Positions 14,340 to 15,746 of a DNA stretch of 64,000 bases are shown here, piece by piece. A model generated the notes under the pieces. The model made no database searches and was not told the origin of the DNA. It saw only the letters and a program-made list of their open reading frames with translations. Made by a program: the position numbers and the translations under genes. This DNA is from an uncultured Actinomycetes bacterium. Its GTDB lineage: Bacteria > Actinomycetota > Thermoleophilia > UBA2241. Where the stretch lies: positions 372,978-436,977 of the forward strand of contig CAVPVX010000002.1 in the NCBI GenBank assembly GCA_963709345.1, written 5' to 3'. How positions within the stretch are numbered: position 1 is the first letter of the stretch; each line of letters starts with the position of its first letter.

Positions 14340-15746
14340 TCAGTAGTGCAGTCCGGTCTTGTTCTTGAACTGCTCGACGCAGTTGATCTCGATGTCGAGC
14401 AGCTTGGCGATACGAGCCTTCGCCGCGATGCCCTTGGCAACGCCCGGCACACCCGTGATCGTCCCGATGTCGAGTTCTTCCCTGAGAAGCCGCATCGTGT
14501 GGGGGTCACTGAGGTCCAGTGGGGTCACGTGGAGCTTGTCGGCGACGTACTTCTTGGCTTCGTCGATCCTCATCTTCTTGCTGAGCTGCATACGAGCAAC
14601 GAGATCTCCCGCTGCCCGGATGCCGCCCATGGACGAGGCCAACAGATGGGCCATGTGCATGCCGGCGGGGTCACCAGTGCCCACCTACAACCCGTCGGCC
14701 TTGCCGATCTCGATCATGGCCGCACTGCAGCGGGTCACGACGTCGACCGCGGGGGTCTCGAACATCGGCACACCGCCGACGCCCATACCGACGTTCGGGT
14801 GGATCGGCACCTTGGCGATGTCGGTGCAAGCCTTGACGAAGACGAGCGCCTTGCCGAGGTTCCACGGCGTGGACTTCTTGGTGTTGGTGGTGCTGACCGG
14901 ACCGAAGATCGAGACGCCGGCCTCCTCGCACACCTGCAACTGCTGGTGCGGCCACATGCCGGCCAGCCGCTTCCCGTTGTACTCGATGGTGCCGTGGATA
15001 CCGGTCACCATCTCGGTCGACATGCCGATCTCGACCGGCAGCCCCGTCTCCTTGGCGACGTGCTCGGTGCTCTTGAGCACTGCGGCGAACTCACCGTCGC
15101 CGGTGGAGGCCACGGTGTCGTAGTCGATACCGTCGGCGCCCATCTCGACCATGCAGTCGCTCATCTCGATGCAGTCCTCGAGGCACTTGGCGCCGGCTGC
15201 CTCCTGCGTCTCCCGCGACTCCTTGATCTTGCCCTGCTGCATGAGGTCGTACGGGTTGTCGAACGGGCCGTCGCTCTTGAAGTATAGGCCCAGGTTCGGC
15301 ATGAACCCGTAGAGCAGCGGGAAGATCGTGGTCTCCATGAGGATCTCGACGTGGAGCATCTCAAGCTTCTTGAGGAAGCGCTGCGGCTTGACCGAGTAGT
15401 CGTTGTGCGAGACTTCCATCGAGTCGAAGCCGAGCATGGACTCGTAGAGCCGCACGCCGACCTCGCGGTTGACCGGAGCGACGACGCCGCTCGAAATCTG
15501 CGACGAGTTCAGCGCGTTGACGCAGCCGTCCTTGGTCATGACGACCTCGTTGCCGCGCTGCACGCCCCAGATGCGCGTCGGGGCGGCGAACACGTCCACG
15601 AGCCAGTCGATCTCGTTCTCGGTCAGAGGCGGAACCTTCGCCTTCTTGGCCGCGAACTCCGACCCGTCGATGAACTCCTGGCGGAGCTCGTCCATGGTGA
15701 ACTCGACGTTCGAGTTGTCACCCATTCTCGTCAGGATCTTTGCCAT
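14340..15746 (-). CDS. mtbB: Dimethylamine:corrinoid methyltransferase MtbB, pyrrolysine-containing (in-frame TAG at 14685-14687, residue 354 of 468)
   Basis: ORFs 14685..15746 and 14340..14684 are contiguous and in frame: [45 protein letters not shown]. This matches Methanosarcina MtbB VEIAGVDGI-Pyl-[19 protein letters not shown] (recalled). Other shared motifs: [47 protein letters not shown] and AKGIAAK. Confidence 0.93.

Follow-up and report, generated by a model that had tools for sequence, protein, structure and literature searches.

The stretch of DNA analysed here (the window; 64,000 nucleotides of contig CAVPVX010000002.1, assembly GCA_963709345.1, from an uncultured bacterium of the thermoleophilian order UBA2241) contains an mtbB-family methylamine:corrinoid methyltransferase gene with an in-frame TAG (amber) codon. 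By its match to family models, the region 15746-14340 is one gene that truly belongs to the MtbB sequence family, and UAG354 is almost certainly read as pyrrolysine (Pyl). The gene lies among choline-type genes, and its product may well act on an N-methylated ethanolamine late in the complete demethylation of choline, not on free dimethylamine, a proposal that gene content and co-distribution bring to about even. A whole uncultured thermoleophilian order from sediment, soil and digesters carries a Pyl system, with up to 20 amber genes in one genome.

A single mtbB gene with an in-frame amber codon

On the minus strand, the mtbB frame starts with an ATG at 15746, preceded by a GGAGG ribosome-binding site, reaches the TAG at 14687-14685, and continues for 114 further codons to a TGA at 14342-14340. 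Translation with TAG as pyrrolysine (O) yields 468 residues with one recoded step only, O354. An earlier note on this DNA had claimed the codon series GAC GGG TTG TAG GTG GGC ACT GGT GAC CCC, with Pyl as residue 354 of 468 and 114 open codons behind it, and all of this is reproduced. On TIGR02368 (cut-off 369.1) the read-through protein reaches 475.3 bits, and it matches PF09505 over residues 5-463, whereas the two pieces produced by translation table 11 score 307.9 and 149.2 bits, each below the cut-off. Because the pieces span model positions 7-355 and 357-465, the TAG corresponds to column 356; the agreement with the Pyl column of MtbB that the note had proposed as a check is therefore found, and only the read-through form passes the cut-off. 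The amber column is the same across 44 aligned MtbB homologues. Database entries are split, as had been expected: the 120 best database homologues listed are all at most 391 aa, most of them 346-356 aa, and none is full length.

The TAG occupies the same column in 30 of the 30 closest orthologues, the window gene included, and no other stop codon is found there, so that chance and assembly error can be set aside. Among these orthologues the mean ratio of nonsynonymous to synonymous substitution rates (dN/dS) is 0.22 before the TAG and 0.16 after it. The context DG[LY]-TAG-[VI]G.GD surrounds the amber codon in all 11 amber mtbB copies of the genome. As judged from these alignments, the mtbB amber is selected and is not a lesion, a chance event or an assembly error, and purifying selection acts on either side of it. 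In support of read-through, contigs from 3 of 4 RNA libraries, the three coming from different studies, span the amber among the pieces listed (one over 664 nt with 32 differences); these contigs are from relatives, DNA carry-over is possible, and their depths can neither rank genes nor demonstrate one transcript.

The AlphaFold2 model of MtbB, calculated from 44 read-through rows (predicted local distance difference test score, 86; predicted template modelling score, 0.90), contains a TIM barrel at about residues 65-397. Residue 354 is predicted to lie within strand E352-355, the last strand of the barrel, and the next helix (363-371) lies beyond the TAG; termination at this codon would therefore cut the barrel. 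The best fold match of the model is MtaA (4AY7; Z 17.6, root-mean-square deviation 3.6, 253 residues aligned), followed by the homocysteine domain of MetH (3BOF; Z 17.5, root-mean-square deviation 3.7, 254 residues aligned). The nearest barrels also include uroporphyrinogen decarboxylase and BHMT (Z 16-17.6 for the four). MttB and MtmB are not among the fold matches listed, which does not exclude them, and sequence searches found no MtbB structure in the PDB and no MtbB match among plasmids.

Two RNA features accompany the reading frame. Directly at the UAG, a predicted PYLIS_2 element reaches a covariance score of 60.2 bits (gathering threshold 36, E 1.3e-12, model positions 1-100), although the fold of the 100-nt region is overall no better than that of shuffled sequences (z -1.3); the score may partly reflect coding conservation. 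Past the TGA, the strong hairpin claimed in the earlier note is present, with 15 pairs and z -4.4 (0 of 200 shuffles equally stable), though it has no U tract and the terminator scan did not pick it; it would be an RNA stabiliser or a weak terminator. A resembling 14-bp GC hairpin (z -3.4) is located at 15800-15905, between the permease gene and mtbB, and may set transcript stability inside the operon.

A complete pyrrolysine system in a genome that retains UAG as a stop codon

The genome (3.11 Mb, 69% GC, 11 contigs, 98% complete) carries pylB, pylC, pylD, tRNA-Pyl(cta), pylSn and pylSc inside 8 kb of contig C11. Each of PylB, PylC, PylD, PylSn and PylSc exceeds its NCBIfam cut-off, and the tRNA-Pyl placed among these genes folds as a cloverleaf. 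The search for pylT (CUA), pylSn/pylSc and pylBCD elsewhere in the genome, which the earlier note had called for, thus returned the full set. Pyrrolysine codons are also numerous: 15 PF09505 matches comprise 11 mtbB genes, each with one TAG in the same motif, and 4 pieces; 9 of the 64 MTTB matches have a TAG in AG[AL]-O-[GAT]DSK, bringing the amber methyltransferase genes to 20; and the 2 MtmB genes have no internal stop. Together, the complete pyl set and the conserved ambers uphold the claim that this organism uses the 22nd amino acid, with insertion itself inferred from the machinery. With a tRNA-Sec (tca) gene at G000:C1:120215-120312 as well, the organism probably has a repertoire of 22 amino acids. 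Frameshifts interrupt many mttB copies and the MtgA-type gene in the assembly, which looks like long-read indel error.

TAG ends 543 of the 2635 genes called by a hexamer gene caller (about 20%), 18 of them Pyl-type and 525 others. The rate is similar in congeners that lack pyl genes (10/58 and 24/102 genes), one of which (G024) uses TAA far more often (35/102 stops), and release factor 1 (RF1) is present and intact. A reassignment of TAG to pyrrolysine throughout the genome, as a bacterial version of the archaeal code 34, might be suggested by the near-fixation of pylSc in the order (see below). However, TAG is an ordinary stop in about a fifth of the genes, with or without pyl genes, and code 34 was rejected on the 525 genes that end in a non-Pyl TAG. 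Furthermore, the frame stays open behind the stop in 403 TAG-ended genes; 88 of these could be tested by a homologue, and a widely conserved amber was found among these only in mtbB (10) and mttB (8), with no further Pyl proteins among the 88. We consider genome-wide reassignment scarcely credible.

The opposite alternative, that the TAG of mtbB is a true stop, would leave a pseudogene or two polypeptides of 353 aa and 114 aa, the second starting from the following GTG. The 525 ordinary TAG stops favour this reading, and with RF1 present and TAG stops in use some termination at codon 354 is expected. Against it stand the fixation of the amber in the orthologues with purifying selection on both sides, the same amber column in 11 paralogues, the full pyl set, the predicted cut inside the last barrel strand, and the lack of a clear Shine-Dalgarno sequence ahead of the GTG. 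A true stop is therefore very improbable.

Pyl ambers differ from ordinary stops in the preceding codon. All 30 orthologues use TTG for the Leu ahead of the amber, a codon that accounts for 24 of 870 at the other columns of invariant Leu. Within the genome, TTG precedes 14 of 14 called Leu-preceded Pyl ambers and 0 of 43 ordinary Leu-TAG stops, and TTG or TTA precedes the amber in 46 of 46 metagenome orthologues. A short fragment at 56089-56409 of the window, presumably aldehyde-dehydrogenase-like by its motif, has an in-frame TAG where its paralogue has Gln, and is probably a decayed gene and not a Pyl gene.

Host and distribution of the pyrrolysine system

Relatives of PylSc were found at 57 loci, 32 of them at 67-88% identity and 25, mostly from Bacillota, at 47-56%. 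The 32 close loci are titled Thermoleophilia (26), Actinomycetota/Actinomycetes (4) or other phyla (2), and the non-pyl genes around them match the same stretch of this genome at a mean of 67-84%. The host is therefore a member of the Thermoleophilia, in agreement with the earlier note, which had proposed a Thermoleophilia-like host from the sequence. Searching 16S rRNA against plasmid records returned matches of only about 85% and gave no placement of the host. Two loci titled Deltaproteobacteria and Zixibacteria (L042, L047; PylSc 69-76% identical, same flanking genes, 67-72% GC) represent either mis-binned contigs or transfer.

Within the order, 82 of 89 genomes encode PylSc (29 among the 32 best), and the trait is therefore old. 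PylSc also occurs in 9 of 55 sampled genomes of one other Thermoleophilia family (G096, G171, G227, G235, G247, G255, G263, G291 and G295), and in 0 of 190 sampled genomes from ten other families of the class; a 401-genome sample of the phylum yielded it only in the present genome and in one more of the class. Two congeners that are 98% complete (G023 and G024, 1.7-1.8 Mb) lack pylSc, and neither mtbB nor amber-mttB was matched in them at the thresholds applied, a possible case of genome reduction.

The novelty that the earlier note saw in this host does not hold in full. PylRS was reported in two Actinobacteria by Guo et al. 2022 (PMC9630628), as repeated in a review (PMC11764691), and a study of Stordalen Mire (10.1101/2023.07.09.548291; PMC10805028) describes Actinobacteriota metagenome-assembled genomes that express Pyl-encoding mttB and mtbB, with Bog-752 (in its supplement, Thermoleophilia, order UBA2241) among the most active methylotroph genera. 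These organisms share the phylum and the Pyl-mttB/mtbB genes with the present genome. In its accessible text, the study gives them one sentence, takes tri- and dimethylamine to be the substrates and analyses neither pyl genes nor paralogues nor gene context. Pyrrolysine methyltransferases in actinobacteria are thus already in print, host novelty is modest for this reason, and the value added here is scale and gene context. We found no paper on order-wide Pyl in Thermoleophilia or on this gene module in a literature search that most subscription papers fell outside; the accessible portions of PMC13695967 and PMC6855144 hold no information on this lineage.

The mtbB gene belongs to a cluster of choline-type genes

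The same-strand run that ends with mtbB and a HAD gene begins with DeoR and continues through an APH kinase, a non-Pyl MttB, a corrinoid protein, a non-Pyl MtmB, a metallophosphoesterase and an APC permease (Table 1). The corrinoid protein scores 198.5 bits on NF041607 MtbC (cut-off 350) and 200.4 bits on TIGR02370 (cut-off 215.3). The non-Pyl MttB has Gly at the Arg312 column when compared with MtgB (9YCE), and a PSGGY motif is found in 84 of 120 close non-Pyl MttB homologues, the remainder being unmatched by the pattern. The genes for the transaldolase-like protein, which scores far under every named cut-off, the aminotransferase and the transketolase lie 32 kb from mtbB in the same window.

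Table 1. Coordinates of mtbB, its sequence elements and associated genes in the window
Feature	Position	Strand	Remark
mtbB-family methylamine:corrinoid methyltransferase	14340..15746	minus	468 codons; in-frame TAG read as pyrrolysine (O354)
In-frame amber (Pyl354)	14685..14687	minus	TIGR02368 column 356; rare Leu codon TTG before
Rfam PYLIS_2 (RF02509) match, predicted element	14588..14687	minus	starts at UAG
GC-rich hairpin past TGA	14296..14329	minus	15 bp; no U tract
HAD-family phosphatase, phosphoglycolate-phosphatase-like	13600..14238	minus	below family cut-offs
APC-family permease, directly upstream of mtbB	15907..17658	minus	
Calcineurin-like metallophosphoesterase	17739..18686	minus	
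MtmB-family methyltransferase without pyrrolysine	18905..20287	minus	Ile199 at Pyl202 column of 1L2Q
Corrinoid (B12-binding) protein, putatively cognate	20325..20972	minus	
MttB-superfamily methyltransferase without pyrrolysine	21120..22571	minus	Gly where MtgB has acid-binding Arg312
APH-family phosphotransferase, homoserine-kinase-type-II-like	22568..23770	minus	below cut-off
DeoR-family regulator, first gene of run	23898..24659	minus	
Sigma-70-like promoter match TTGACA-16-TATGAT, upstream of DeoR gene	24749..24776	minus	consensus only; 0.9 expected by chance in region
Divergent transaldolase/FSA-family gene	47564-48775	plus	satellite of module; near mtbB in several relatives
HisC-like aminotransferase, dependent on pyridoxal phosphate (PLP)	48821-49903	plus	satellite of module; near mtbB in several relatives
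Transketolase	50018-52018	plus	satellite of module; near mtbB in several relatives
Second DeoR gene	52241-53002		after transketolase

At 16 orthologue loci, chosen across genera from 60 orthologue-bearing genomes, the neighbourhood of mtbB includes the permease and the phosphoesterase (16/16 each), DeoR and a choline/ethanolamine kinase (PF01633; 13/16 each), the transaldolase-like protein (8), and MtmB, MttB/corrinoid, HAD, transketolase and the HisC-like aminotransferase (7 each). The co-occurring kinase is above the PF01633 cut-off, and 12 of its 13 PDB matches are choline/ethanolamine kinases; LicA is among the PDB matches. A protein of about 270 aa that matches no Pfam family and that Atlas features mark as nucleotidyltransferase-like recurs with the metallophosphoesterase and the APC permease (L119:10271-11134; G000 C3:9856-13321 and C11:116225-119713) and stands directly before mtbB in 6 of the 16 loci; it could be part of a reversible modification system for the permease.

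Paralogues and co-distribution separate this MtbB from its relatives

Nine full-length MtbB copies of the genome were aligned and are 40-67% identical to each other, the window MtbB being 40-56% identical to the 8 other copies; such divergence is hard to square with one substrate. A quick tree groups the window-type orthologues, defined by at least 77% identity, in one clade with a Shimodaira-Hasegawa-like approximate likelihood ratio test (SH-aLRT) value of 100, and an orthologue is present in 60 of the 89 genomes of the order. One MtbB (L165:1274-2665) resembles the window clade in its first half and the sister clade in its second, and is a recombinant or a chimeric contig.

The two clades have different neighbours. 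Across 79 metagenome loci (46 orthologue and 33 sister-clade, many on short contigs), a kinase gene is present at 22/46 orthologue loci and 0/33 sister-clade loci, whereas a close Pyl-mttB is present at 1/46 and 19/33, respectively. Of the 89 genomes, 57 have both the orthologue and the non-Pyl MtmB, 24 have neither and 8 are discordant. With the kinase in place of MtmB the counts are 53, 21 and 15, and with the aminotransferase 54, 25 and 10; in the 32 best genomes they are 19/12/1 for MtmB, 17/12/3 for the kinase and 17/13/2 for the aminotransferase. As a control, amber-mttB relatives are kept in 9 of the 13 best genomes without the orthologue. The presence and absence labels were mapped on a tree because related genomes are not independent. 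On this proxy tree (five genes of the pylSc region; 41 genomes, 39 of the order and 2 outgroups) the numbers of label changes are 9, 8, 9 and 6, and the changes largely coincide; those of MtbB, MtmB and kinase (8-9 each) fall mostly on the same branches.

Proposed function

In methylamine methyltransferases, a non-quaternary methylamine is activated by pyrrolysine and gives up its methyl group to a Co(I) corrinoid. Gene content points to a module substrate that would carry N-methyl groups, be phosphorylatable by a choline/ethanolamine-type kinase, and end as a primary amine for an aminotransferase of the histidinol-phosphate type; the conversion of choline to phosphoethanolamine would fit. The substrate of MtbB would most simply be N-methylethanolamine, which as a secondary amine is analogous to dimethylamine, or the phosphate of N-methylethanolamine. 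This is the first candidate because quaternary amines are known substrates of non-Pyl MttB and MtmB enzymes, and MtbB handles a secondary amine.

In the proposed mechanism, tRNA-Pyl(CUA), charged by the split PylSn/PylSc with pyrrolysine made by PylBCD, would read UAG354 in competition with RF1. The pyrrolysine, at the mouth of the barrel, would bind the amine nitrogen as in methanogen methylamine methyltransferases, and the corrinoid protein encoded at 20325-20972 would accept the methyl group on its Co(I). An MtgA/AcsE-type enzyme would then hand the methyl group to tetrahydrofolate (THF), to be oxidised along the folate branch. The quaternary amine would be handled by the non-Pyl MttB and MtmB. 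The choline/ethanolamine kinase would add the phosphate, and phosphoethanolamine, as the primary amine required by the HisC-like aminotransferase, would be turned by it into a glycolaldehyde unit. The HAD enzyme, the transketolase and the transaldolase-like enzyme would move this C2 unit to sugar-phosphate metabolism; no particular order of these steps is implied. More tentatively, and at somewhat less than even confidence, a bacterial route not described before would strip choline of all its three methyl groups, with phosphoethanolamine deaminated and the C2 unit delivered to pentose-phosphate enzymes with no trimethylamine formed, and the other ten amber MtbB proteins would be Pyl demethylases for different secondary amines, in an order that would have founded its metabolism on the 22nd amino acid.

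The genome encodes a RACo activator, a pterin-binding MtgA/AcsE-type gene, formyl-THF synthetase (on contig C3) and three [FeFe] hydrogenase-motif proteins. A motif match to formyl-THF synthetase on contig C10 was rejected, as it sits among cobalamin-type genes. Wood-Ljungdahl acetogenesis was also rejected as the methyl sink: the 98% complete genome has no PF03598 (acetyl-CoA synthase) match, and the methyl group is therefore probably oxidised and not turned into acetate.

Several points weigh against an N-methylated ethanolamine as substrate and against the evidence assembled for the module. MtbB lies above the dimethylamine methyltransferase equivalog cut-off (TIGR02368), and its clade nests among sister MtbBs that are mostly beside Pyl-mttB. 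The non-Pyl MttB lacks the Arg312 that MthB keeps; the PF01633 kinase genes of this genome are on other contigs, the operon kinase being of the different APH type; and enzymes of the choline-kinase and HisC folds accept many substrates. The MtgA/AcsE-type gene is among those frameshifted in the assembly. Co-loss can stem from deletion of one cluster, with linkage and incomplete bins explaining part of the pattern; the tree is a five-gene pylSc-region proxy, and many genomes are incomplete.

The same Pyl enzyme might instead be an ordinary dimethylamine:corrinoid methyltransferase, as the earlier note inferred, that mops up dimethylamine set free in other reactions; the choline-type genes would then merely be its neighbours in an amine-catabolism island with a common APC permease. 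Along with its equivalog score, the window protein has the second-best PF09505 score of the genome's copies (586.9 bits, compared with 636.1), and APC permeases accompany the mtbB and mtmB genes of methanogens. However, another copy (C11:181561) is the nearest to the family model and lies directly behind a Pyl-mttB, and the window type is tightly co-distributed with the kinase, MtmB and the aminotransferase, not with Pyl-mttB. A PLP aminotransferase cannot free dimethylamine from a tertiary amine, and a crude motif scan of the genome found no CutC. In the accessible part of the Known_Enzyme table of PMC10805028, dimethylamine is the sole MtbB substrate, a further point for this alternative, which we consider possible but on balance doubtful.

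A substrate of another kind, namely an N-methylated amino alcohol, amino-polyol or amino-sugar phosphate, would suit, no less than choline, the sugar-related partners of mtbB (DeoR, transketolase, transaldolase-like protein and aminotransferase, at the frequencies given above), as well as the divergence of the transaldolase-like protein from all named families, and the operon MttB, which lacks the Arg common to characterised acidic quaternary-amine enzymes. This appears unlikely, since the PDB matches of the kinase are nearly all choline/ethanolamine kinases, and three methyltransferases per one corrinoid protein suit a trimethylated substrate.

If N-methylated ethanolamine is indeed the substrate, pyrrolysine chemistry is widened beyond mono-, di- and trimethylamine, and MtbB becomes a candidate for the demethylation steps after dimethylaminoethanol. 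The literature search, again with most subscription papers outside it, found no named enzyme for these steps and no paper that links MtbB to N-methylethanolamine. The proposal bears on how, in anoxic soils, the nitrogen and methyl groups of choline would avoid both trimethylamine and methanogens. The genes can be cloned, and the lineage is a source of PylRS/tRNA pairs of high GC content as well as of a clean context rule, TTG before the amber, for studies of how UAG is read.

Relation to known systems

The window MtbB resembles Methanosarcina MtbB (TIGR02368, PF09505) in its full-length match, the amber at column 356, the motif DG[LI]-O-[VI]G.GDP, and a corrinoid gene and an APC permease nearby. 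It differs in that the host is a bacterium without methanogenesis, in which it is one of 11 divergent copies, and in that its neighbours are non-Pyl MttB/MtmB, kinases, phosphatases and sugar-phosphate enzymes and not Pyl-MttB. As in the bacterial split PylSn+PylSc systems of Firmicutes and Deltaproteobacteria, pylSn and pylSc are separate, pylBCD and pylT are present, and TAG is otherwise a stop; here, in contrast, the system is near-fixed in one actinobacterial order, with 20 amber methyltransferase genes in a genome.

In Eubacterium limosum, MthK/MthB/MthC/MthA carry out kinase-dependent choline demethylation that ends at dimethylaminoethanol (Jiang et al. 2025, PMC12155760). The kinase of that system is clustered with a non-Pyl MttB and a corrinoid protein. 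A PF01633 kinase gene likewise lies near mtbB in 13 of 16 loci of relatives, but in the present genome the adjacent kinase is of another APH type and the PF01633 genes are on other contigs. The cluster described here adds Pyl-MtbB, a non-Pyl MtmB and an aminotransferase; MtbB is unmentioned in the accessible text of PMC12155760. We considered the window MttB as an orthologue of MthB and rejected it: the equivalent of Arg312, the residue used as the criterion for acid-group binding in MttB-type enzymes (accessible text of PMC13080624), is missing as judged via the MtgB column, and the protein is for this reason not MthB-like.

A parallel for the window MtmB is MtqB of the archaeon Methanococcoides methylutens Q3c, a non-Pyl MtmB homologue that adjoins a corrinoid gene (MtqB/MtqC) and demethylates choline and tetramethylammonium, according to the accessible text of PMC13044021. 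The window MtmB has the MtqB-type layout, an MtmB fold without pyrrolysine beside a corrinoid gene; the likeness is one of layout.

Other features of the window

Further MttB-family genes lie near the contig end (60152-63846), one of them intact and at least one split across two frames (62055-63513). Cytochrome bd oxidase genes are found at 44873-47264, in an otherwise anaerobic-looking genome, and a tmRNA with the tag DESNLALAA is encoded at 43697-44051.

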